From positions 320,001 through 384,000 of the forward strand of contig CAWFJP010000029.1 of NCBI GenBank assembly GCA_963816145.1: a DNA stretch of 64,000 nt, in the 5' to 3' direction. Every line of letters begins with the position of its first letter. Position 1 is the first letter of the stretch. Made by a program: the position numbers and the translations under genes. The notes under the pieces are model-generated. The model made no database searches. It was given only the letters and a program-made list of their open reading frames with translations, and was not told the origin of the DNA. The stretch is from an uncultured delta proteobacterium (GTDB lineage Bacteria > Desulfobacterota > Binatia > UBA9968). Shown here one piece after another: positions 4,584-52,973 of this stretch.

Positions 4584-5522
4584 CTACAGTGCTTTGAGTT
4601 CGCCGATATAATCCTTGAAGCCGTTGACGATGTCGTACTCCGGAGTCCAGCCAAGCACCTGTTTGGCCTTCTCGATCACCATCGGCTGTTTCGCCGAGCG
4701 GGGTTTAACTCCGGGGATGATTTCCACCTGTAAATTTGGCAGCAGTTTTTCGGCGGTCGAGACCAGATCGTCGAAGGGGATGACCACGCCGGTGCCGATG
4801 TTGAGCGTCACCGGTTCCTTCAGCGGCGTGGTGACCGCCTTGTCCAAGGCGCGGCCGAGATCTTTGTAATAAACATATTCGAAATCCCGGGCGACCTCCT
4901 GGGCGATCTTAACGACGCCGCCCTTGATGCCGGTCTGCAACATGTTTTGGACCATCTCGCCGCCGCCGGAGCCGCCGGCAAAGTGGCCGACGCCGTAGAC
5001 ATTGGCGAGCCGCAAAACGATCAACTCAAAGCCGAACATGCGCTGGTAGGCCTCGACCATGAGTTCCTTGGCGACTTTGGAGTTGCCGTAAGCTTCGCCG
5101 GGACCGCGGCGAAAACCTTCGTCGATCGGATTGGGCTCGCCTTGGCGGCGGTCGTAGACGCCAAAGGTGCTGATTTGCACCAAACGCTTGACGCCGGTGA
5201 GACGCACCGCTTCGGCGACGTTGATCGTGCCCATGACGTTGATCTGCATCCCCGCATAGATCGGGTTGCCGACTTTTCCTCCGATCAGTCCTGCCGTGTG
5301 GATGACCGTTTCGCATTTATGTTTCTGGATGGTTTCGATGAGCGACGGCAGATCGCGCACATCTCGCTGGACCACGGTAACGTTGGCGGCACCGAGTTTA
5401 TGCGCCAAGAAATCCTTGCGCGGGGCGACATCGTAAAAGACCACGTTGTCGCCGCGTTTGATCGCATGTTGCGCGAAAGATGTGCCGACCAGACCTAGGC
5501 CTGTAATGAGTGTCGATGCCAT
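4584..5522 (-). CDS. NAD-dependent epimerase/dehydratase (extended SDR)
   Basis: LITGLGLVG Rossmann motif, YGNSK catalytic motif, LRLANVYG. Confidence 0.9.
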   Translation of the reverse strand: MASTLITGLGLVGTSFAQHAIKRGDNVVFYDVAPRKDFLAHKLGAANVTVVQRDVRDLPSLIETIQKHKCETVIHTAGLIGGKVGNPIYAGMQINVMGTINVAEAVRLTGVKRLVQISTFGVYDRRQGEPNPIDEGFRRGPGEAYGNSKVAKELMVEAYQRMFGFELIVLRLANVYGVGHFAGGSGGGEMVQNMLQTGIKGGVVKIAQEVARDFEYVYYKDLGRALDKAVTTPLKEPVTLNIGTGVVIPFDDLVSTAEKLLPNLQVEIIPGVKPRSAKQPMVIEKAKQVLGWTPEYDIVNGFKDYIGELKAL

Positions 5523-5688
5523 AAGAACTCCTTTTTGTGGGTTGATTTAGTTCCTATTGCAACGGCGGCGAAATGTCTAGCGGTTATTGAGGCCGATTCC
5601 ATTCGTTTGCTTGTCATCCATTGCAAAGCGCGTTTGTGGCGGTGTATATCGCAGGAAGATTAGTTGTGACATGGGGAGGAAAAGGAAC

Positions 5689-6786
5689 ATGCAAGGAGTA
5701 GTCGATGCCGATACTCATATCGCCGAGCCGGAGGCGATGTGGCAATTGATTGACGAGGAGATGGCGCCGCGCCGGCCGGTGTTGGTGGACTTGCCGGAAG
5801 ACACTTGGTTTGGCGATCGCAACGCTCTGTGGCTGATCGATGGACAGATTTTCCCCAAGCCGGCAGGCAAGGGCAGTTATCGGCTGGTGACGCCGTCGGC
5901 GCAGAAGGCGGAAAAAGTCCGCGGCGATATCGCCATCGCCAGCCGTGAAGTCGCCAACGTCGAGGCCCGCGTGAAAGATATGGACCGTCTCGGCGTGTCG
6001 GTGCAGGTGATCTATCCGACGCTGTTTTTGGTTTACATCACTGACGATCCGGAACTCGATACCGCCCTGGCCAAAGCCTACAATTCATGGCTTGGCAATG
6101 CTTGCGCCAAGTCCAATGGCCGGCTCAAGTTTGTCGCGGTGTTGCCGCTGCGCTCGATCTCGGAATCGCTCAAGGAGATGAAGCGAGCCAAGGATCTCGG
6201 CGCGGTGGGAATCTTCTTTCGCGGCATCGAGGGTGACAAGACTCTCGATCATCCCTATTTTCATCCGGTCTACGAGCAAGCGGCCAAGCTGGGCTTGCCG
6301 ATCAGTATTCATACCGGTTCCGGCGCGCCCTGGATGTTGCCGTACTTCGAGCATGCGCGGAACCACACCTTTGCCCATGGGCGGGCGCTGCCGATCTTCG
6401 CTTTCCGGGATTTGCTCGCCAATCGCATTCCCGAGAAATTTCCCGGGCTGCGTTTCGGCTTCATCGAAGCGTCGGCGGGCTGGGCGCCGTTCATGATTCA
6501 CATTCTGCGTCGCCTGTTCAAAGACCGGCCGCAATACCAGAACAGCGCCGAGCTGTTTCGGGCATCCAACATTTTCATTGCCGCCGAGGCCGACGAAGAC
6601 ATTCCCTACCTCGCCAAATGGATCGGCGAAGATAACATTGTCATCGGTTCCGACTACGGCCACAACGATCCGTCGGCGGAAGAGAAGTTGGTCGAGAGCC
6701 TGCAGAAACGGGAAGACATTCCGGAGCCGTTCGCGAAAAAGATTCTCTGCGACAATCCGCGCCGGTTGTACGGCTTGGATGCGTAA
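5689..6786 (+). CDS. Amidohydrolase_2 family protein
   Basis: VDADTH, IHTG, FIEAS and GSDYGH motifs. ATG 5689 follows an AGGA RBS. Confidence 0.9.
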   Translation: MQGVVDADTHIAEPEAMWQLIDEEMAPRRPVLVDLPEDTWFGDRNALWLIDGQIFPKPAGKGSYRLVTPSAQKAEKVRGDIAIASREVANVEARVKDMDRLGVSVQVIYPTLFLVYITDDPELDTALAKAYNSWLGNACAKSNGRLKFVAVLPLRSISESLKEMKRAKDLGAVGIFFRGIEGDKTLDHPYFHPVYEQAAKLGLPISIHTGSGAPWMLPYFEHARNHTFAHGRALPIFAFRDLLANRIPEKFPGLRFGFIEASAGWAPFMIHILRRLFKDRPQYQNSAELFRASNIFIAAEADEDIPYLAKWIGEDNIVIGSDYGHNDPSAEEKLVESLQKREDIPEPFAKKILCDNPRRLYGLDA

Positions 6787-6831
6787 AGAAAGGATCGAGC
6801 GTTCGAGGCGATTTTAGAGACTCGGATATTA

Positions 6832-6960
6832 CTCCCGCCAAGACGCAAAGCGCCAAGTGACGGGCTCATGCCGGTCATCCCGAGTGGATGCGAGGGACCT
6901 AAGAAAGATTCCTCCCGTCGGCCGAAATGACATGCTCCGACCTCTGCGCTTTTGCGGGAG
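6832..6960. repeat. Composite palindromic REP/MITE-like element, copy 2 (inverted)
   Basis: Reverse complement of the 1783-1919 core. Confidence 0.85.
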
Positions 6961-7028
6961 ATCTTCCGGAATTCGCTTGCGGCCCTGCCGGTGCAATGGA
7001 TCACGAATGGCTTGAACTCTCTGGAGTT

Positions 7029-7736
7029 ATGAAGGACCTCGAAAACTTCGTCCAAGATGTCGCGGTGCATTTCAACGCGAATCTCGGCTCCGCCCTGGTC
7101 GAGGCGTATAAGCTCGGCAGTCTAGCCCACGGCGGCTTCAGCGACATCTACAGCGATATTGATGTCGGCTTGCTTCTCAGTTGCCGCGAACCGCCGCCGC
7201 GGATGAGCGAGCTGATCGCCGGCGCGAAGGCGCTGCACCCGGAATACGGCAAAAAACTCTCGATATTTTGGGGCAATCCTGATTTTGACTGGGGGCGTTT
7301 GCCGGTGATCGATCGCCTGGATTTGCTCGATCATGGCGTGGCGCTGCTGCACGGCATCAAGCCCCCTTTGCGGCGGCCGAGCAAGCAGGAGATTCACCAC
7401 GAGCAACTTCAGAGCATCGAGCGGAGTTGGAAACCTAGATTGCCGGAGCTGAATCTACTGACGAGTCTTGAACCAAAAGACCGCAAACCCTACATCCGCG
7501 CGATCCTCTACGCCGCGCGCTTGATTTATACCTGGGATAATCTGGTCGTCGGTTCCAATGACAGTGCCGTCGAATATTTGCACCAGGTGAGGCCCGAGGG
7601 GCTCGATCTCAAAGCGATCGACATGGCGCTCATGTGCCGCAAGGGAGAGTGTAGTGCCGAAGATGTGATGCGCTTGGGCAGCGATCTCAATCGGCACTGT
7701 GACAGCGCGATGTCCTATGTCTTGGGACGGCCCTAG
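7029..7736 (+). CDS. Pol-beta superfamily nucleotidyltransferase, distant AadA/ANT-like
   Basis: GSLAHGGFSDIYSDIDV fits GS...DxD. Helical C-terminal domain. GGAG RBS before ATG 7029. Confidence 0.75.
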   Translation: MKDLENFVQDVAVHFNANLGSALVEAYKLGSLAHGGFSDIYSDIDVGLLLSCREPPPRMSELIAGAKALHPEYGKKLSIFWGNPDFDWGRLPVIDRLDLLDHGVALLHGIKPPLRRPSKQEIHHEQLQSIERSWKPRLPELNLLTSLEPKDRKPYIRAILYAARLIYTWDNLVVGSNDSAVEYLHQVRPEGLDLKAIDMALMCRKGECSAEDVMRLGSDLNRHCDSAMSYVLGRP

Positions 7737-15086: not shown

Positions 15087-16747
15087 TCAGCCGGTGATCT
15101 CGTAGCGCACGTTGGTCGGGCCTTCGACGCGGCGGTGGGCGCCGATTTCGAAATTGTAATTGCCCTGTAAAACTTTCCCCGCGACGCGCTCGGAGCGGAG
15201 GATTAGGCCGTAGGATTTTCCTGGGCCGCCTTGTTCGGCGTGGATGTCAAAGGGTGGTACTAGGAGCCTGTCGGAGAAAGTGTTAAGGGGCAGGTATAAA
15301 AAGTTTTCAGCATGGCCATTTTTTCTGGACACCCAATTGATCGAGACTATATTGGTGTGCATGAGAACGTTCAAGTCGTACCAACCTGATCAACTTTACT
15401 TGTTGCCGCCAGCGCTTCGCGATTGGTTGCCCGAGGGGCACCTGGCGCTGTTTCTCAGCGATGTGGTGGATACGCTGGAATTGGGGCCGATCTTTGATGA
15501 CTACGAGCAGGGCGATGGGCGAGGGCAGCCGCCGTATCATCCGGCGATGATGGTGAAGCTACTGATCTATGGGTACTGCATGGGCAAGCCGTCCTCGCGC
15601 AAACTGGAGCGGGCGAGCTATGAGGAGGTGGGGTATCGGGTGTTGTGCGCAGAGCAGCATCCGGACCATGACAGCATCGCCGAGTTTCGCAAGCGCCATC
15701 TTAAAGCGTTAGCCGGACTGTTTGTGCAGGTGCTGCGGCTGTGTCAGAGAGCGGGGCTGGTGAAGTTGGGGCATGTAGCGCTGGACGGGACCAAGGTCAA
15801 GGCCAACGCATCCAAGCACAAGGCGATGAGCTACGAGCGGATGTGCAAAGCGGAGCAGGAATTAGAGCTTGAGGTCAAGCGGCTGCTGGAGCTGGCCGAG
15901 AAGGTCGATGGGGCGGAAGACCAGGAGTTTGGGGAAAAGCGCGGGGATGAGTTACCGGCGGAGTTGGCGCGGCGAGAGAGCCGGCTTGCCAAGATTCGTC
16001 AAGCGAAGGCTGAGCTGGAAGAGGAGGCGCGCCAGCGCGCCGAGCAGGCTGCGGCCCAGGCGCAAGCAGAGATTGAAGAGCGACGGCTCAAGGAAGAGCA
16101 GACGGGGAACAAGGCCAAGGGGCGAGAGCCCAAGATAAACGATCCCCAACAAAGCGTGCCCCAACCCAAAGCACAGAGAAACTTTACCGATCGGGATTCA
16201 CGGATCATGAAGGACGGGGCGACGGGGGGCTTTGTTCAAGGGTACAATTGCCAAGCGGTGGTCGATAGCCATGCCCAGATCATCGTGGCGGCGGCGCTCA
16301 CGCAACAGGCCAATGACAAGCAGCAGTCCGGTCGACTTTGCCGGGAGTGCCTTGGGTGATGCTTTCGATCTCTAATTTAGCGTATCCTTCTTTGGTGCCG
16401 TCGTCGACTCGACGATAGCGCTCCAGTGTTTCCGTTCCTTCGAGCAGTCCGTAGGCGGTCCAAGATTGGGCGTGATCGTGGATGCTGCCTTTGCGATTGG
16501 CGCCATGCACCACGCCGTTGATGGCAAAGCCAAAGTCGGGGTCTTCATAGAAAAGCAGATTGCGCCGGCCGCCGTCGGTGTCGGGCCAAGTTTTGCAGGT
16601 CTGGCGCATGGACTCGTCTTTGACCAGCGTTTCGAGTAAATCGCGGCCCTTTTTCATCCGCAATTCGGTGTCCGGGAGTGTCGCCCAGGCGTGTCGCAAA
16701 TCTTGAATGAATTTTTCGAATGCCGGGAGCCGTTTCGCAGTCGACAT
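15087..16747 (-). pseudogene. Cysteine dioxygenase-like cupin split by IS1182
   Basis: 5' part 16747-16331 ends GKVD and 3' part 15263-15087 starts LVPPFDIH. The joined protein is colinear with paralog 16888-17469. Confidence 0.9.
15264..16329 (+). mobile_element. IS1182-family element, right-truncated (transposase from 15361)
   Basis: LLPPALRDWLPEGHLA, YHPAMMVKLLIYGY, PDHDSIAEFRKRH, LDGTKVKANAS, TDRDSRIM, GYNCQ. Breaks off at ANDKQQ. The left end GAGCCTGTCGGA follows CTAG. Confidence 0.9.
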
Positions 16748-22528: not shown

Positions 22529-23638
22529 CTATTGGGACGCAGAGCGCCGTTCAATTTCAGGAATGACTTCCTGGCAGATCAGATCGATGGCTTCGTCCCA
22601 GTTGGGCCCCAACGGCGAGGCCATATCGATGATGTCGAAACCATAGGGTTTGGCAGCGCGCAGCATTTCGTCGACGCCGTCGACGCACTCGGCCGGTGTG
22701 CCGGCGATGACGGTGCCGACTTGGGCTAGCAGATCATCGTCGATCAAATCGATCATCTCGTCCACGGTCTTGCCCGAACCATGCGCTGCCGCGACCGATC
22801 TGGCGGTCGCTTCGGGCATGGGTAATTTCAGCAGACGCTGTTTGAGTAGATGCCCCTGGATGAGCGCGCCGGCGCCCATGCGCTTGGCAAAGCGTTTGGC
22901 CGCGGCGCCGTCACGAGACACTGAAATATGCAGATGTAAAACCTTGGTAAATTTACCGCCGTCGTTGCGGGCACGGCGGGCCTTTTCCAATTCTGCCATC
23001 GCCAGGTCGATCGCCCCTTGACGCACCAGCGCGCTCGGAAAAGACAGGTTGCTGACGATCAAGCCATCGCCGATGTCCCAAGCCATCTTGAGCATCTGCG
23101 GCCCGGCGGCGGCGACGAAGATCTCCGGTACTCGGGCCGGGGGAAGGCGGAGAAACGCTTCGGCGTTGGGATCGAGGTGGAAGAATTCAGTGAGGCTGGC
23201 AAATGTGCCGAGCGTAACCGTTTGCCCCGCGAACATTTCCCGTAAAAACAAAATGGTTTCCCGCACCATGGCGACGCGCTTGGTCTTGCGGATCATATTG
23301 GACGACGGTGAACCGGCGCCGATGCCGACGGTGATGCCGCGGTCGCCGGCGAGGTGTGCCAGAGACGCGAAGCTCGATGCCAAATCGACCGGAGTGCGAG
23401 CCCAAGGATGAGTTACCGATGTGCCGACATGGGCGCCGGTACGGCTGATGATTGCGGCCAAGATGACAAAAACATTTTCGTAGGTCAGATGATCCGGCAC
23501 CCAGACTTTGTCGAAAGCGTATTGCTCCAGTGCCTTCTTGGCGTAGGCCGCCATCTCCGGAGCGGTGCAAGGTGGATAGAGTTGGATGCCGAAGCGCATG
23601 ACGTTACGGGCCAGCCTGGGTAGTTTACTGTGTAACAT
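22529..23638 (-). CDS. LLM-class flavin/F420-dependent oxidoreductase
   Basis: FDKVWVPDH, GTSVTHPWARTP, GIGAG, AAAGPQMLKMA, IAGTPAEC. Start is 23638 or 23599. Confidence 0.9.
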   Translation of the reverse strand: MLHSKLPRLARNVMRFGIQLYPPCTAPEMAAYAKKALEQYAFDKVWVPDHLTYENVFVILAAIISRTGAHVGTSVTHPWARTPVDLASSFASLAHLAGDRGITVGIGAGSPSSNMIRKTKRVAMVRETILFLREMFAGQTVTLGTFASLTEFFHLDPNAEAFLRLPPARVPEIFVAAAGPQMLKMAWDIGDGLIVSNLSFPSALVRQGAIDLAMAELEKARRARNDGGKFTKVLHLHISVSRDGAAAKRFAKRMGAGALIQGHLLKQRLLKLPMPEATARSVAAAHGSGKTVDEMIDLIDDDLLAQVGTVIAGTPAECVDGVDEMLRAAKPYGFDIIDMASPLGPNWDEAIDLICQEVIPEIERRSASQ

Positions 23639-24020
23639 AAATTCACGGCTGGGTACTAATAGCTTTTACAAACGGCAACTTCTGGCCGGTGGGCGAAACA
23701 AACGCCGACGGCAGCGCCGCCACCTCGGCTCAATACCTCATATCGCTACCGGCACTGCCATGGTTCTGACACCGTCAGGATATCGTCTTAAAAGCACGGT
23801 CCTAAGCGCAGCTTGAATGCGAATGCTAGTAGCACTTAAAAGCTCAATCATATAATGGGCGATAATACAGGTAGATTTGTTACAAACCTAAAGTGTCGAT
23901 TGCAATTATTGGATTCGCTAGCTCCGGCAGATTTGTAAGCTGTGATGCGATTGGCGCAGGGGCATGTGGTCGGGAGACATCGTCGAGGCTTTTTGCCGTC
24001 CTCTCGGAGTGTTGTCAATT

Positions 24021-24137
24021 TTGTCAAGCATTGACAACCAACTTGGCTTAAATGTCAGTACAGTCACTCAGCGTTACCTAGAACATCCAATTGCTAAACG
24101 TTTCCCAAGTCAGCTATGACGGCAAGTCAGTGATGAC
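24021..24137. promoter_or_regulatory. Candidate enhancer (bEBP) sites, GTCA-N4/5-TGAC
   Basis: TTGTCAA-GCA-TTGACAA (24021-24037) and tandem CAAGTCAGNNATGAC (24106-24120, 24123-24137), upstream of a sigma54 promoter. Confidence 0.5.
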
Positions 24138-24259
24138 ATGAATAACGGGCATCCTTGTGTCATTTCTAGCAATTTACAATTGGGAATTTCAGATGATTCC
24201 TGGTGAAAGATTTTACCGAATAGGGACAGGGGGGGTCTTCATATGGGTCTCGATCCCTG

Positions 24260-24275
24260 TGGCATGCTTTCTGCT
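24260..24275 (+). promoter_or_regulatory. Sigma54 (-24/-12) promoter
   Basis: TGGCATGCTTTCTGCT fits GG-N10-GC. The predicted start site lies just before the riboswitch. Confidence 0.7.
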
Positions 24276-24289
24276 CGAATCCCCTTACA

Positions 24290-24363
24290 AGTTGACGCTG
24301 TGATCTGAAATCCCCAACGTGGTCACCATGGGGCTCAGGGAGCGAGTGGTGAAACCGGCAACT
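24290..24363 (+). promoter_or_regulatory. Cyclic di-GMP-II riboswitch aptamer
   Basis: GTTG/CAAC P1, TGTGA...GAGC kink-turn-like motif, CCCCA/TGGGG stem, loop TGGTCACC pairing with GGTGA-AA-CCG (pseudoknot). Matches the class II consensus GAGYNAGTRGTGNAACCGRC. Confidence 0.85.
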
Positions 24364-24384
24364 CATAGTTGCCGGTTTTTTTTT
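24352..24384 (+). terminator. Intrinsic terminator (riboswitch expression platform)
   Basis: AAACCGGCAACT-CAT-AGTTGCCGGTTT plus T run. The 5' arm overlaps the aptamer 3' end. Confidence 0.9.
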
Positions 24385-24422
24385 GTTCGGTTTCAGAAAT
24401 TCTCGAAGGGAGGGTCGAACCG

Positions 24423-24878
24423 ATGTCGTACCACTTGAAGGAAAACAAAGGCCAGAGCGCAGTGGAGTTCACCTTAGGGTTTTTGCTTCTTTATACCGTG
24501 ATCATGGCTGTCGTCGAGTTCTCGCACATGTTTTATACCAAGACGGCTCTACAGCACGCGATAGCTGAAGCGGGCCGTTATATGATCACAGGCCAAGGAA
24601 TCGACCTTACAGGAACCAATCCCAACGCTCGTTTGCAGAAAGTCCAAGAAAAATTCTGCAACAATCTGATCGCTACGGGTCTTCCCTGCGCAAATGTTTC
24701 CTCGCATCTTACGTTGACCTGCGTCGGTGGCTGCACACAACCGGCCGGCGGTCCAGGTCAGACCGTAACTCTCACTGCGACGTATTCGAGATCGTGGTTT
24801 ACCGGGATGTTCAATCATCTATTGCCCAGCATCACTCTTGCCGCGAACACGACTTGGAAAAACGAAATCTATATGTAA
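24423..24878 (+). CDS. TadE-like pseudopilin
   Basis: KG|QSAVEF prepilin motif, hydrophobic helix, AIAEAGRY. Confidence 0.9.
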   Translation: MSYHLKENKGQSAVEFTLGFLLLYTVIMAVVEFSHMFYTKTALQHAIAEAGRYMITGQGIDLTGTNPNARLQKVQEKFCNNLIATGLPCANVSSHLTLTCVGGCTQPAGGPGQTVTLTATYSRSWFTGMFNHLLPSITLAANTTWKNEIYM

Positions 24879-24896
24879 CTGGCACAGGAGTTCATT

Positions 24897-25559
24897 ATGA
24901 GATTCATACGCAAATACCTGAGTACAAAAAAAGGTCAAAGCCTGGTCGAGATGACGTTTGGTATCCCGATGTTGATTGGTCTGGGGTTCGGGGTTATCGA
25001 GATTGGCAACATGATTAACTCCTATCTGGTGTTAACCCATTTGACCCGTGAAGCCACTAACATTCTAGCCCGTCAGCCCGGAGTTAAAGGCTCGACGCAA
25101 TGGGCGACAAGTGTCAACACGGATTTGAATGCGGTCATCAGCAAGGCAAGCCCGGTCATTAACCCAACTGCCAGCGGCGCTAGAGGGCCGAATCAGTATA
25201 AAATCTACTACTCGATGATCGAGTGGAATACCGCCCCGGGAGCTTGCGATGGTGGACCAATGGCGAATGGCCAGCCGGACAATTACCGGATTCGTCGCAG
25301 CAATACAGGTTGGACCGGCAATGTCACCTGGCAATATGGTTCATTGAGCCGGAATAGCAACTTGGGCAACGATGGAGAGTGTGCCTACCTGCTTTTGCCT
25401 GAGGTCAAGAACCTATCTGCACAGGGGCTTGTTCTCCATGTCATAGAAGTTTTCTATGATTATGCCCCAAGTAAGTTAACTCCGGTGGAAGGCTTCATCG
25501 GTGCTCTCGCGCCCGGAATATTTTATCGCAAAACGGTTTTTATGGATGTTGTCGGGTAA
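24897..25559 (+). CDS. TadE/TadF-like pseudopilin
   Basis: KG|QSLVEM motif, hydrophobic helix, TREAT. Confidence 0.88.
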   Translation: MRFIRKYLSTKKGQSLVEMTFGIPMLIGLGFGVIEIGNMINSYLVLTHLTREATNILARQPGVKGSTQWATSVNTDLNAVISKASPVINPTASGARGPNQYKIYYSMIEWNTAPGACDGGPMANGQPDNYRIRRSNTGWTGNVTWQYGSLSRNSNLGNDGECAYLLLPEVKNLSAQGLVLHVIEVFYDYAPSKLTPVEGFIGALAPGIFYRKTVFMDVVG

Positions 25560-25603
25560 CCACGCGAATTGAGATGACTCGTACCTATGACAAGGAACAG
25601 ATT

Positions 25604-26821
25604 ATGAAGCGCAAAAACGAAAAGGGTCAAGCACTTGTTTTTATCTTGTTATTGTTTGCTGTGTTGCTTTTTCTGGTTGGCTTAGCCAGCGACGGCGGCC
25701 GGGCGTATTTGCTTAGAGCCTCCTTGGCTCGAGTCGTCGACGCCGCGACGATTGCAGCGGCGGCCAAGCTCAATTCACAGGGACTCACCGCGGCTCAAAA
25801 CGCTGCGTGCGATTCGGCGAGGATGAACGGTGTCGCTAATTGCGGTATTTTAAATGTCACTCAGGTGACTACTAACGATGCCGCCGGCAACCCAAAGGAA
25901 GGCGTCAAGGTTACCGCAAACGTTTCAACCCCAACGATTTTTGTCGCCGCCGGTAATCTGCTCGGTTGTACCACCTGCAGTATCATTAATGTCTCGGTTA
26001 GCGCGGTGGCAACCACGGGTGGTACAATCGATCTGGTGACGAATCTCGATAACACGGGGTCCATGGCAGGCTCCAAAATAACCAACGCCAAGATCGGTGC
26101 GAATGCTTTAGTTACGGCTTTAATGCCCAGTGGTGGTTCATCCACAGCGCTCGTCAGTGTCGTGCCTTTTCAGGGATGTTATCGGTCGAGTACAACCGGC
26201 GGTTGTGTCGATGAGGATGAAAACCCGATCAACGGCGGCATGATAGTATCGCTGACTAGTGATGCTTCAAGGCTGCATAACGGCATCAATGCTCTAAGCG
26301 CGCCGGGCGGTTCCGGAACAAACGTTTGCACCGGGCTGAAAAAAGCCCGCCAGAAACTGTTTCAAGCCGGTGTGGCTCGGCCTAATAGCTTGAGATTTCT
26401 AATTATTCTCACGGACGCAGAGAACAATTATGACACGAATCTCCCGAGTGGCGGTGTGGACGCGGCCTGTATTCCGTCCGGAAACAATGACAATGCCCGC
26501 AACCTAGACCTCGGAGTAAAAACCAATGCCCTTGCCACGGAAATCAAAGATCCCGGCTCCGACTCCGATGGGCAATCGGTTGGACAACTAGTGAAAGTCT
26601 TCGTGATCATGTACGGTCCCAACGCAACCGGAACCGTTCCGAGCAATTGCAATGCGACTGGCCTAAGCAGCGGCACTGCGACAAGCCAAAGCTATACAAA
26701 AAATCTTGCACGCTGCATCGCTTCCAGTGCCGGTGATGTTTACTTGGCGCCCAATGCTACAGATATTAGCGCCGCCTTTCAGCAAATTATCAGTCGATTG
26801 CCGGTTGTTTTGGTTAACTGA
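25604..26821 (+). CDS. TadG-like pilus protein with vWA domain
   Basis: KG|QALV, DGGR...VDAATIAAA Tad domain. vWA MIDAS-like DNTGSM, GTN, ILTD. Cys-rich. Confidence 0.88.
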   Translation: MKRKNEKGQALVFILLLFAVLLFLVGLASDGGRAYLLRASLARVVDAATIAAAAKLNSQGLTAAQNAACDSARMNGVANCGILNVTQVTTNDAAGNPKEGVKVTANVSTPTIFVAAGNLLGCTTCSIINVSVSAVATTGGTIDLVTNLDNTGSMAGSKITNAKIGANALVTALMPSGGSSTALVSVVPFQGCYRSSTTGGCVDEDENPINGGMIVSLTSDASRLHNGINALSAPGGSGTNVCTGLKKARQKLFQAGVARPNSLRFLIILTDAENNYDTNLPSGGVDAACIPSGNNDNARNLDLGVKTNALATEIKDPGSDSDGQSVGQLVKVFVIMYGPNATGTVPSNCNATGLSSGTATSQSYTKNLARCIASSAGDVYLAPNATDISAAFQQIISRLPVVLVN

Positions 26822-26890
26822 TTCGCTCGTGAAGCCGTTTTCTGGACTTAGCTTTGTTTTGGTCCAATTACGTGACGCTGATCAAACGCA

Positions 26891-26927
26891 AGGAGGGAGT
26901 CGCGCGTAAGCACGACTCCCTCCTTTT
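26891..26927. terminator. Intrinsic terminator, probably bidirectional
   Basis: AAGGAGGGAGTCG...CGACTCCCTCCTTTT. Confidence 0.85.
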
Positions 26928-26962: not shown

Positions 26963-27060
26963 TTAGTACTCGGTCTGACGCGTGCGTTGGATCTGTTGAT
27001 TGTTACGATTGATGGTCTGCTGGTATTGTTGAATCTTCTTTTGGTTACCGATGAGCAGCC
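26963..27060 (-). pseudogene. 3' remnant of a paralog of the glycine-zipper lipoprotein
   Basis: 26963-27036 matches 28846-28919 at 70 of 74 nt (QQTINRNNQQIQRTRQTEY*). Confidence 0.75.
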
Positions 27061-27622: not shown

Positions 27623-28519
27623 ATGGAAAACTTAATTCTTGGAATTTTCGCTCTAGGCTGCAGCATCGTGACTTTGCTCGGTTGGTTGTGGCTTAGTGCT
27701 GAGCGGGACTTGACCAAGACCCGAAGTGAAGCAGCAAGGCGCGAGTCGGAAACGCGCAAGTTCGATGAGGAGCTCAATAACCTAAAACAAACGCTTTTGG
27801 ATCACGAAAAGCGTTTATACAAGTCGGTAAATCACGAGCACGACGTGGCCACTCAGCACAACCGGTTGCGCAGCGATATCGCCGAACTCCGTGGTAAGCT
27901 CGATGAAAGCCAAGGTAAGATATTGGAGGTGGTTGAGGCCAAACGAGCCCAGGCAGTTGTCCAGGCAAGGGGTGGCGGAGATACCGCCGAGTTGGTTCGA
28001 CTTGACGATCGTATTGCCGAACTTGAGCAAGAGCTTGCTAAGGATGAGGCCAAGTTGCGCGAGTTGGATCTTGTGTGCGAGAGACTCGCTGAGGGAGAGC
28101 GGATGCGACAAGCGTTGCGCGAGGAAAGTGCCCGCCATCAGGCTCAACTGGAACATTGGCGCGATCGCAGTATCGAAAGCGAGGAAAGCGAAACGAGAGT
28201 GGCGTTAATTCAAGAGCAGTTCGGCGAACTCTTGACGATGCAAGCCACCTTTGCTGAGGCGCAGCGGCGATTTCACGACGCCTTAGTGAAGTTTGATGGT
28301 TTGATGGATACGCCCTCGAAGGCGGTGGTTCAGACCCCAACCTTCGAGGTGTTTAGAGGCAGTGGCGCCCAAGCGCAGCCGATATCCACCGGCAATGCGA
28401 CTGATAGTAGAAACCCGCAGCAGCCGACAACCCAGTCCGACGTGCGCTTGACAGAGGTGCAGCGGCAGAGCGGGTTTATACCCAGGTTGCGCAACCTCAA
28501 GACGCCAAAGGTTGGCTAG
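27623..28519 (+). CDS. Membrane-anchored coiled-coil protein
   Basis: N-terminal TM helix, long E/L/R/Q heptad region, low-complexity tail. Confidence 0.75.
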   Translation: MENLILGIFALGCSIVTLLGWLWLSAERDLTKTRSEAARRESETRKFDEELNNLKQTLLDHEKRLYKSVNHEHDVATQHNRLRSDIAELRGKLDESQGKILEVVEAKRAQAVVQARGGGDTAELVRLDDRIAELEQELAKDEAKLRELDLVCERLAEGERMRQALREESARHQAQLEHWRDRSIESEESETRVALIQEQFGELLTMQATFAEAQRRFHDALVKFDGLMDTPSKAVVQTPTFEVFRGSGAQAQPISTGNATDSRNPQQPTTQSDVRLTEVQRQSGFIPRLRNLKTPKVG

Positions 28520-28775
28520 GCGGAATTGCCCACGATGATCATTATAAGTGTGGTCGGTATCGTTGCAGGTGCTTTTTTTCGATGCTTAGCAATCGCATTA
28601 CCAAGCCGGGAATTCTTGGAGTTGTGCCTTCGGGATTAGAAAGCACTGCAGCCCGTGGGCCAGCCAATGCCAGTATCTCGGCATCGGACAAATCAGCGGC
28701 GGGTGCGAAATCAGAATCGCAACTCATTTTGCTCCCGAGGCTAGGCCTGCCGATTAAAGACGCTGCATGATAAAC

Positions 28776-28814
28776 AAAAAAAGGGAGTCGGCGATTTCGC
28801 CGGACTCCCTTTTT
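28776..28814. terminator. Bidirectional intrinsic terminator
   Basis: AAAAAAAGGGAGTCGGCGA-TT-TCGCCGGACTCCCTTTTT. Confidence 0.85.
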
Positions 28815-28845
28815 ATCTGGTGCTGAATCTACTTGCCGAGCAGCC

Positions 28846-29190
28846 TTAATACTCGGTCTGACGCGTACGTTGGATCTGTTGATTGTTACGATTGATGGTC
28901 TGCTGGTTCTGTTGAATCTGCTGTTGGTTCGTCTGGTATTGTTGCTGCTCTTCCTGCCCTTGCATGTAATCGCCGACCAGTGCGCCAGCGCCCAAGCCGA
29001 CCGCTCCGCCGATCGCCGCGCCTGTCCCTGGCCGGCCCACCGCTGCACCGATGAGACCGCCGGCCGCCGCGCCGCCCAGGGCACCGATACCTGCGCCTTT
29101 TTCACGGGTCGTCAGTGAACCCCCGGAGCATCCAACGAAGATCATGCCGGCGACTCCCAGCGCCATCCATCTTTGCGTCATGACTTTCAT
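28846..29190 (-). CDS. Glycine-zipper lipoprotein with Gln-rich tail
   Basis: AGGAGGT RBS, lipobox FVGC, GAGIGALGGAAAGGLIG..GAAIGGAVG. Confidence 0.9.
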   Translation of the reverse strand: MKVMTQRWMALGVAGMIFVGCSGGSLTTREKGAGIGALGGAAAGGLIGAAVGRPGTGAAIGGAVGLGAGALVGDYMQGQEEQQQYQTNQQQIQQNQQTINRNNQQIQRTRQTEY

Positions 29191-50656: not shown

Positions 50657-50860
50657 CTATCCCGCTTTGGGTGCAAGGTTTTCTTCTTCCTGTACCCACT
50701 CTTGGAAGCGGCTTTCCAGTATGCGCCACTGTCCGCCGACCTTAAATGCCGGGATTTGCCGGTGCTGGATCATGCGGTGCAGGGTTCGCTTGGATATTTT
50801 AAGTATGCCGGCAGCTTCCGCGAGAGTAAGCAGCTTGATCGCGGTATCGGTTTTTTTCAT
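50657..50860 (-). CDS. HTH_17 (excisionase/BldC-like) small DNA-binding protein
   Basis: LLTLAEAAGILKISKRTLHRMI...IPAFKVGGQWRI, AGGAG RBS. Confidence 0.9.
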   Translation of the reverse strand: MKKTDTAIKLLTLAEAAGILKISKRTLHRMIQHRQIPAFKVGGQWRILESRFQEWVQEEENLAPKAG

Positions 50861-50891
50861 GGTGGTGGTACTCCTGCGGAGAGAATAAGCG

Positions 50892-50907
50892 AGCAAGTGA
50901 TATGCCA
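50892..50907 (-). promoter_or_regulatory. Sigma54 promoter of the HTH_17 gene
   Basis: Minus strand reads TGGCATATCACTTGCT, with the predicted start about 20 nt before ATG. Confidence 0.78.
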
Positions 50908-51180
50908 CCATCCCAACCGGGATTAACCCCTTGAAATTGAACAGTTCTGACGCAATTCGGGCTACGCCAAAAGATTTGCTTTAGGTCGAAAAACCGACAG
51001 ACTCGAACTGTTGATGACAAAAGTGGCGGTGGGCAAATTTGTACCTTTGCAATCAGGTGGAAAGCTTTGCAGTAACTGGAACTTGTCGGGACATGGTTAA
51101 GCAAAACTTGGAGCCTAAAAAGGAGCAATAAGTGGTTTCGAATTGGGATCAGAAATGCGAACTGAGGTGAGTTTAGAAGT

Positions 51181-52099: not shown

Positions 52100-52805
52100 G
52101 AATCACTCACTGACACAAGGGTTTTGGCATTTCGGTGATACCGAGGTACTGACGCTTGCGCGACTGGATGGGGATAGGAAAACTTTATCTCTCGGCGTGT
52201 CGCTGACCAACGCGCGCGACGAGCCGAGGGGGCTCAATAAGGGGCGGCACAACTGGTGGGACGCGGAGCGGGCTGAGCGCGCGAAGGCGAAGACCCGGGC
52301 CTTGAGCTTGGGCGAGTGACTGGACCCGTACCTTCACCTCACGGTGAACGCACCATCTCCGGGACCAACCGGGCGCGCTGCCAGCACGTTAAAGGCCTCC
52401 TGGGCCGGCTGCCGTTGGCGGAGGTCACCCGTGTTTGTATCATGGAGTACAAGCAGCGGCGCCTGGCTGAACCGCTAACCCGTCACGGCAAGCCGGTTAA
52501 AGGCAGTCAGGTGCAGGGCGCCACCGTTAACCGCGAGATCAGCTGCCTGGTCGGCGCGTTGAACCTGGCGTGCGACCAAGGGCTGTGCGACGGCGCCCCC
52601 AAAGGTCAAGAAGGAGCGCGAGACCGCGCGTGAGCGGACGCTGACCGACGGGGAGTATCGGCACTAACCGCCGCCGAGCCCGCGAGGGTGCGGGACACCT
52701 GCTGGTCACCGCGAACGGGACCGCCATCGACCGCGAGGCGCTGCTCAGGCTCACCTGAAATGCGATTGGCGATGGTCTAGTCACGAATCTAGGGCGGCGG
52801 CCCAA
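52100..52805 (+). pseudogene. Tyrosine integrase remnant
   Basis: Frameshifted pieces: YKQRRLAE...ATVNREISCL..ALNLA, RERTLTDGEY, TAIDREALLRLT*. The catalytic C-terminus is missing. Confidence 0.75.
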
Positions 52806-52886: not shown

Positions 52887-52973
52887 TGGTGCGAGGAGCG
52901 GGATTTGAACCCGCACGCCGTTTCCGGCACTAGCCCCTCAAACTAGCGCGTCTGCCGATTCCGCCACCCTCGC
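52887..52973 (-). tRNA. tRNA-Leu(GAG)
   Basis: Cloverleaf GCGAGGG...CCTCGC-A-CCA, anticodon loop TTGAGGG, long variable arm, GGTTCAAATCC. Lies downstream of secG. Confidence 0.97.

Follow-up and report, generated by a model that had tools for sequence, protein, structure and literature searches.

The 64,000-nucleotide stretch analysed here (the window; contig CAWFJP010000029.1, from an uncultured member of the Binatia) contains, at 24021-26927, a cassette of three genes of the Tad pilus families preceded by a structured leader. On balance we favour the view that this locus is a one-promoter, three-gene operon for the complex of minor pilins at the tip of a Tad (type IVc) pilus, gated both by sigma-54 and by a class II cyclic di-GMP (c-di-GMP) riboswitch, with the motor, secretin, prepilin peptidase and Flp pilin encoded elsewhere. 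In 5' to 3' order, the locus comprises an inverted repeat, two direct repeats, a -24/-12 element, the aptamer, an intrinsic terminator, a ribosome-binding site (RBS), the three genes and a closing hairpin. Promoter, aptamer, terminator and three small genes all lie within 2.7 kb. It is a real and tidy regulatory unit, in which known families of parts are newly combined, in a new lineage.

The Rfam model of the c-di-GMP-II riboswitch (RF01786) matches the plus strand at 24284-24369 (53.9 bits, E 4e-9; the gathering score is 53.5), which bears out the class II aptamer proposed in an earlier reading made without database searches (the sequence-only reading). The core of the aptamer, 24290-24363, has a P1 of 5 base pairs (bp), P2 and P3, and its P3 loop pairs with the 3' strand in a pseudoknot of 5 bp (UCACC/GGUGA). 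In one pair of this pseudoknot, the G-C of the Rfam consensus has become U-A, both strands being altered. The same aptamer is found in the same place in three of the 19 homologous loci that we fetched, L001, L006 and L007, which were found via the TadG protein (79-85% identity); the first copy in L007 is decayed. The named homologues are Candidatus Binatia metagenome-assembled genomes (MAGs). A phylogenetic tree, from which L006 and L007 were omitted because their tadG is frameshifted, unites the window, L001 and P0004 in a clade with good support.

The homologous copies in L006 and L001 score 54.9 and 53.9 bits with RF01786, both at or above the gathering score. Across seven copies of the aptamer, 95.9% of the 146 cells that make up its 21 helix pairs are able to pair, compared with 18-44% when the 3' partners are slid, and the 5-bp pseudoknot is invariant (7/7 copies). 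One pair shows a compensatory change among the seven, from G-C to A-U. From P1 to the end of the terminator T run, aptamer and terminator are 94-95% identical to those of L001 and L006, compared with 39% for the DNA upstream, and the synonymous divergence of the adjacent genes is 0.38-1.1 per site.

The intrinsic terminator, at 24351-24384 on the plus strand, consists of a T run preceded by a 13-pair stem (24351-24379) in which one pair is G-U. The stem's 5' arm (24351-24363) is made up of the last pseudoknot nucleotides, the ACCGG pocket strand and the P1 3' strand CAACU, a 13-nucleotide (nt) overlap with the aptamer, and its 3' arm repeats the P1 5' strand AGUUG. The shared arm and ON-switch architecture had already been recognised in the sequence-only reading, with a stem of 12 bp where we count 13 pairs. 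At minimum energy the leader folds into the terminator form (-40.2 kcal/mol, z-score -3.6), while the nested helices of the aptamer total -4.8 kcal/mol and the pseudoknot adds about -5.4 more. As the terminator is far more stable than the aptamer helices, read-through would require the ligand to bind co-transcriptionally, and the layout is hence predicted to be that of a transcriptional ON switch. Without ligand, the 13-bp terminator would form and transcription would stop before tadE1; with c-di-GMP bound, P1, pocket and pseudoknot would hold the terminator 5' arm and RNA polymerase would read through. A purine-rich RBS, AAGGGAGGG, can be read from the sequence at 24406-24414 (plus strand), with 8 nt separating it from the ATG at 24423; it is located 22 nt past the T run and outside the terminator pairing. 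The leader is 82-89% identical to that of the relatives, and the same terminator follows both of the aptamer copies in L001 (see below).

Several observations weigh against this reading; those concerning the promoter, the pilus and the ligand are given with these subjects. The margin of the aptamer over the Rfam cut-off is just 0.4 bits. Covariation is not above that of shuffled controls, the observed values being reached in 158-433 of 500 shuffles, because the seven copies are nearly identical. In P3, the window has an A-C mismatch where the relatives have G-C or A-U. A search with Rfam (E <=0.1) found no riboswitch in L002, L003, L004, L005, L008 and L018, of which five have all or part of the cassette. 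L009-L019 likewise gave no class II aptamer match. Given that these distant cassettes are without a riboswitch, the RNA gate appears to be a recent addition in one narrow clade. Finally, no GGDEF or EAL domain was found in a Pfam scan of 47 of the 71 window open reading frames (ORFs) of at least 150 amino acids (aa), the 24 omitted being mostly shadows overlapping better ORFs.

Upstream of the leader, the window contains a cluster of palindromes, to which the sequence-only reading had drawn attention. A perfect 9-nt inverted repeat, GTTGTCAAT-N10-ATTGACAAC, at 24011-24038 contains GTCA-N5-TGAC (24023-24035) and is a candidate distal activator site, about 225-250 nt 5' of the -24 element. Two direct copies of the 15-nt sequence CAAGTCAGnnATGAC, 17 nt apart at 24106-24137, are each a GTCA-N4-TGAC palindrome (24109-24120 and 24126-24137) and are candidate proximal activator sites, about 125-150 nt 5' of the -24 element. 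Three of the five matches to GTCA-N4/5-TGAC in the window fall within 115 nt here, with 1.27 expected per 64 kb, and none of 2000 Markov-simulated 64-kb sequences had at least three matches within 150 nt. The clustering is non-random.

The putative promoter is the sigma-54-type -24/-12 element TGGCATGCTTTCTGCT at 24260-24275 on the plus strand. It fits GG-N10-GC, with GG at 24261-24262 and GC at 24273-24274 in a TGGCA and TGC context. By sequence, such a match is at chance level: at up to two mismatches, the sigma-54 consensus has six matches in the window where 12.55 are expected, and TGGCATGCTTTCTGCT is not among the window matches at up to one mismatch. The riboswitch could therefore be the sole gate of the operon. 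TGGCAT...CTGCTC would then be another signal, such as an operator, a promoter for another sigma factor or a longer leader's 5' end, and the palindromes would bind an ordinary repressor or activator, perhaps one for the divergent gene. This gene, on the minus strand at 22529-23638, encodes a luciferase-like monooxygenase and shares the intergenic region with the cassette: the 784 nt between it and the first tadE-like gene hold all of the upstream elements, the aptamer, the terminator and the RBS. It also suits this alternative that the palindromes were not found upstream in L001, L006 and L007, and that no rpoN or sigma-54 activator gene was found among the ORFs sent to Pfam or in the flanks of the loci.

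What argues for a promoter of the sigma-54 type is conservation. In an alignment of the window with L001, L006 and L007, the TGGCATGCTTTCTGCT block is conserved better than any other 16 columns upstream, with 13 of them invariant; the 365 other blocks average 3.9 and reach at most 9, and the aptamer itself has 12.8. The invariant positions are TGGCAT and CTGCTC, which is to say exactly the GG and GC elements with their neighbours, and the intervening 5-nt spacer is variable. The identity of the element to the relatives is 78-83%, compared with 33-39% for the DNA further upstream. The distance to the aptamer is also fixed: the 13 nt between the -24/-12 block and P1 are only 27-45% conserved in sequence but constant in length, the spacing being identical in the window and L001, and the alignment has no gaps there for L006. 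The strict pattern TGGCAY-N5-YTGCW is present in only three of the 19 fetched loci (L001, L006 and L007), always at the homologous spot. A scan for sigma-70 promoters returned none on the plus strand of the intergenic region. There is also a hint from the riboswitch-less relative L003, in which TGGCCCTGGTTTTGC precedes the first tadE start by 70 nt; this is weak evidence, as the locus contains three such matches with 1.36 expected. The promoter named in the sequence-only reading is thus present as an element, and is the most conserved block upstream, but by sequence its match to the consensus is no better than chance. We consider it rather unlikely that the riboswitch acts alone, and a sigma-54 promoter likely.

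With a sigma-54 promoter, transcription is predicted to start at about 24285-24287, some 12 nt past the GC element and 2-4 nt before P1. This start would fit the aptamer because the outer P1 pairs of the Rfam model are mismatched here. A start of this type should require an enhancer-binding activator. The second-best conserved upstream block, at 24215-24230, has 9 of 16 columns invariant and lies about 30-45 nt before the -24 element; it may be a site related to a bending protein or to the activator. The only other strict TGGCAY-N5-YTGCW match in the window is at 50892-50907 on the minus strand, at the start of an 84-aa ORF (50657-50911, minus strand) resembling an excisionase with a helix-turn-helix. 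Nearby features, at 52316-52633 on the plus strand and 52890-52973 on the minus strand, are an apparent integrase fragment and a tRNA gene, possibly the remnant of an integrated element; the excisionase-like ORF and the integrase fragment were judged by eye from their translations.

All three genes of the cassette are on the plus strand. The first (24423-24878) encodes a TadE-like minor pilin of 151 aa (PF07811, 44.5 bits, cut-off 22.9, E 1.7e-11) and the second (24897-25559) a TadE/TadF-like minor pilin of 220 aa (PF07811, 31.0 bits, cut-off 22.9, E 2.7e-7). The third (25604-26821, with an alternative start at 25574) encodes a TadG-like modular pilin of 405 aa, which matches PF13400 (27.5 bits, cut-off 22.3) and PF00092, the von Willebrand factor type A domain, vWA (30.7 bits, cut-off 23.8). 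The motif cleaved by prepilin peptidase has the form G/xxxxE and is followed by a hydrophobic helix. TadE1 has KG/QSAVEF, with Glu15 invariant in seven of seven aligned rows, and TadE2 has KG/QSLVEM, with Glu18 invariant in eight of eight. The N-terminal Tad helix of TadG has the motif KG/QALVF, without a glutamate at +5. The three prepilin-motif genes of the sequence-only reading are therefore of the TadE, TadE and TadG-vWA families as proposed, but only two of them have the full G/xxxxE motif. The ratios of non-synonymous to synonymous divergence from L001 are about 0.09 for TadE1, 0.10 for TadE2 and 0.10 for TadG; the three genes are under purifying selection. The operon ends in a terminator hairpin at 26890-26927 on the plus strand, a 13-pair stem followed by Us (-31.4 kcal/mol, z-score -4.8), in agreement with the closing terminator noted before.

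The vWA domain of TadG has a complete metal ion-dependent adhesion site (MIDAS), D149-x-T151-x-S153, T239 and D271, which is invariant in all 19 sequences compared. An AlphaFold model of TadG (predicted local distance difference test, pLDDT, 80.2; predicted template modelling score 0.70) has a long helix at the N terminus, a small sheet and the vWA domain. Its best fold matches in the PDB are vWA adhesins of pilus tips: PitA (7w6b), Mfa5 (6to1 and 6tnj), SpaC (6m3y), RrgA (2ww8) and the modular minor pilin PilB of Streptococcus sanguinis (7b7p). The template modelling (TM) scores are modest, 0.26-0.41 on the query. The model of TadE2 was poor (pLDDT 52.8 from eight sequences) and was left out of the fold search. 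In the proposed tip complex, the two TadE/F-type pseudopilins would be joined by the TadG-type modular pilin, whose distal vWA/MIDAS domain would form the adhesive end.

The genes for the remainder of the pilus, that is the motor, secretin, prepilin peptidase and Flp pilin, would lie outside the cassette. The Pfam scan of the 47 window ORFs found no Tad core family (CpaF/TadA, TadB/C, secretin or TadV), and a six-frame motif scan of the whole window found no Flp-like small pilin, as the sequence-only reading had stated for flp, prepilin peptidase, secretin, CpaF and TadB/C. There is also no Tad core gene within the sequenced flanks of L001-L008, some of which are short contigs. In these eight loci the order tadE-tadE-tadG recurs among unrelated neighbours, so far as the contig covers it. 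In the window and in L001-L008, a TadE/F/G-like trio thus stands apart from pilus machinery.

This isolation raises the question of whether the three proteins belong to a Tad pilus at all. They could form a stand-alone, membrane-anchored vWA complex, or prime another type IV filament, such as a type IVa pilus or a machine like a type II secretion system. The lack of a Tad core gene near any of the orphan cassettes, in the ORFs and flanks scanned, would suit such an arrangement, as would the missing Glu+5 of TadG; furthermore, the combination of a Tad N-terminal helix with a vWA domain is very widespread, and we found no publication on pili in Binatota, judging from titles and abstracts. On the other hand, two of the three proteins have the Tad-type G/xxxxE motif with an invariant glutamate, and full-length TadG homologues (29-33% identity) are found in Chloroflexota, where those of L011 and L014 are located inside canonical tad loci together with TadE, RcpC/CpaB and a TadZ-like ATPase. 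Because these members sit in tad loci, the family is a genuine Tad component. Orphan TadE/F/G cassettes that serve a Tad machine encoded at a distance are moreover documented (PMC12075869). A function outside a Tad pilus is accordingly unlikely in our view, and we retain the tip complex of a Tad pilus as the preferred reading. The stand-alone, swappable tip module of the sequence-only reading is plausible, but the idea is not new, as Myxococcus provides a precedent.

Two features near the homologous cassettes and tad loci deserve mention in their own right. In L008, a Bdellovibrionota MAG, a 620-aa flagellin (5277-7139) with six FG-GAP repeats between its N- and C-terminal helical regions is encoded about 1.6 kb upstream of the orphan tadE-tadE-tadG cassette. 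In the Chloroflexota loci L011 and L014, c-di-GMP-I riboswitches (4908-5026 and 4682-4799, respectively, both on the minus strand) lie about 5 kb from the tad locus and divergent to it. The one in L011 leads the gene of a Thr/Pro-rich surface protein that has a membrane anchor at its C terminus, and a vWA/SdrD-B adhesin-like gene comes next; the one in L014 leads a 518-aa ORF without a Pfam match.

The ligand of the riboswitch can be considered in the light of the c-di-GMP-II structure 3Q3Z, in which A69 reads Gα, G73 and the ribose of A70 read Gβ, A70 intercalates, A61 caps the pocket and the ligand backbone has the first P2 pair stacked on it (PMC13715770). With the 3Q3Z numbering placed on the Rfam consensus by counting back from G73, the ligand-contacting residues A61, A69, A70 and G73 are kept in all seven copies. 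Position 68 is A instead of C, and its pseudoknot partner is U instead of G. From these residues, c-di-GMP is the likely ligand. The assignment to a family is close-run, since the copies that follow tadG in the relatives (see below) score best with the model of the GAG variant, RF03169 (50.6-54.5 bits, cut-off 40). The c-di-GMP-II-GAG family has the same fold as the copies here and the same U-A pseudoknot pair. We take its name to mean that the position recognising Gα has a G where the canonical family has A. At this position, 69, the RF03169 consensus has G, whereas all seven copies have the canonical A, and the copies are accordingly not filed under the variant. That the aptamer senses something other than c-di-GMP, such as 3',3'-cGAMP or the ligand of the GAG class, is very unlikely: although the relatives' second copies score higher with RF03169 than with RF01786, all copies carry the U-A pair of its consensus, the first P2 pair is C-G here and not A-U, and an engineered class II aptamer with a one-nucleotide deletion binds both cGAMP isomers and shifts its preference upon a change of one base pair (PMC13715770), position 69 is A throughout, with A61, A70 and G73 canonical too, the best family of the window copy is RF01786, and the regulation of pilus and adhesin genes suits c-di-GMP biology.

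In the relatives, a second copy of the aptamer and terminator is located directly 3' of tadG. It is found at 11238-11923 in L001 and at 11210-11895 in L006, both intervals including the gene that follows, and at 6745-6852 in L007. The second copy in L001 begins 16 nt past the tadG stop, too close for it to have its own promoter. The gene that comes after it in L001 and L006, tadE4 (182 aa), is a fourth TadE-like gene; in L007 the contig stops shortly after the terminator. The closing hairpin of the window operon (26890-26927) aligns with the hairpin 3' of tadE4 in L001 and L006. The tadE4 module itself was not found in the window, where a tblastn search with tadE4 matched only TadE2 (24% identity), and an nhmmer search of 324,140 bases returned no further copies of the aptamer. 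A possible remnant of a second aptamer at about 26871-26890 in the window, suggested by a likeness seen by eye, was rejected, as neither blastn nor nhmmer found a copy there and the alignment was unconvincing. In L007 (4330-4435 and 4385-6727), the first aptamer is without its P1 5' strand and its T run is interrupted. Frameshifts split tadE1 and tadG, and the second aptamer is intact. This state may reflect either pseudogenisation or an error of MAG assembly.

The second copy suggests a wider hypothesis, which we put forward tentatively. c-di-GMP might programme the composition of the Tad tip at the RNA level: sigma-54 and its activator would open the operon, the riboswitch would decide on the vWA tip, and in the sister genomes the second copy would set a higher threshold for the fourth minor pilin. 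If this were true, one pilus motor would be fitted with graded, signal-dependent tips, the first case of a minor-pilin or tip-switching system under riboswitch control, and serial riboswitches would act as a two-step dosage filter within a single operon. The relatives with a second riboswitch inside the operon provide a natural test of serial gating.

The cassette differs in composition from its surroundings, as the sequence-only reading had remarked. Its GC content is 0.511, compared with 0.563 in the rest of the window, and its GC content at third codon positions is 0.55-0.59, compared with 0.69-0.74 in six flanking metabolic genes. A cassette GC content below that of the surroundings is also seen in L001, L006, L002 and L003; the difference is barely present in L008 and reversed in L005. 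Elsewhere in the window, an ORF with a DUF772 transposase domain (15244-16359) is found amid many NMT1-like, amidohydrolase-2, Rieske and luciferase-like genes, a gene content that we take to be typical of Binatia-type catabolic gene-rich regions. Downstream of the cassette, an 84-nt direct repeat (26963-27046 and 28846-28929, 93% identical) corresponds to the 3' end of a glycine-zipper lipoprotein gene. The two repeats flank about 1.8 kb that is not present in L001, a local rearrangement or insertion adjoining the cassette. This extra DNA holds a 298-aa coiled-coil ORF (27623-28519) and an unassigned 187-aa ORF (28542-29105, minus strand).

We found no publication joining a class II riboswitch with TadE or Tad genes, and none, by titles and abstracts among the matches listed, that pairs a riboswitch and sigma-54 on Tad or pilin genes, in line with the statement of the sequence-only reading that the combination was not known to it as described. 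The cassette also differs from the canonical tad loci: L011 and L014, from Dehalococcoidia/Chloroflexia, contain the same families, with a full-length TadG/vWA match of 29% identity, beside RcpC/CpaB and a TadZ-like ATPase, whereas the window cassette is isolated among catabolic genes. Of the tip adhesins matched by the TadG model, S. sanguinis PilB (7b7p; Foldseek E 1.8e-7) likewise combines a pilin N-terminal helix with a vWA/MIDAS module. The similarity is modest, with a TM-score of about 0.37 over 396 columns and 12-14% sequence identity, and PilB is a type IVa pilus protein of a monoderm, unlike the Tad-type protein here.

Two precedents nevertheless cover most of the idea. One of them is the leader of a pilin gene of Clostridioides difficile. 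In the work of Bordeleau 2015 in J Bacteriol, this leader is reported to contain a class II c-di-GMP aptamer that acts as an ON switch by preventing a terminator, such that high c-di-GMP raises pilus expression. The aptamer in a pilin-gene leader and the terminator-preventing ON layout would thus be common to both systems. In C. difficile, however, the gene is reportedly that of the major type IVa pilin of a Firmicute and stands beside the assembly genes, whereas the cassette here encodes Tad minor pilins and a tip adhesin only, away from the machinery, in a Binatia-like diderm; it also has a sigma-54-type promoter upstream, and in the relatives a second copy of the aptamer within the operon.

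The other precedent is the Kil Tad pilus of Myxococcus xanthus. This pilus has four interchangeable tip cassettes of TadE/F/G-like proteins (KilLMN), three of which are separate, previously uncharacterised clusters, the fourth being part of kil cluster II. In the KilLMN type the three proteins form a heterotrimer by way of their N-terminal helices; the distal domain of the large TadG-like subunit is variable and is displayed at the pilus tip, and the function is the killing of prey (PMC12075869). The three-gene composition of TadE/TadF/TadG-like cassettes is the same as here. The parts of the report drawn on here describe the KilLMN distal domain as being of no known fold and mention no riboswitch or sigma-54 control (PMC12075869), whereas the distal domain here is a vWA/MIDAS domain and both kinds of control are proposed.

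If the locus works as proposed, it would tie the riboswitch to the recent idea that Tad pili are customised via interchangeable tips, in a host lineage that is uncultured and environmentally abundant, and its compact layout would offer a clean model for combining an activator signal with a second-messenger signal. As all of the components are of known families, a specialist would find the system neat, not startling. Set beside these precedents, what it would add is that c-di-GMP riboswitch control extends from the major type IVa pilin of Firmicutes to the tip-forming minor pilins of a Tad pilus.

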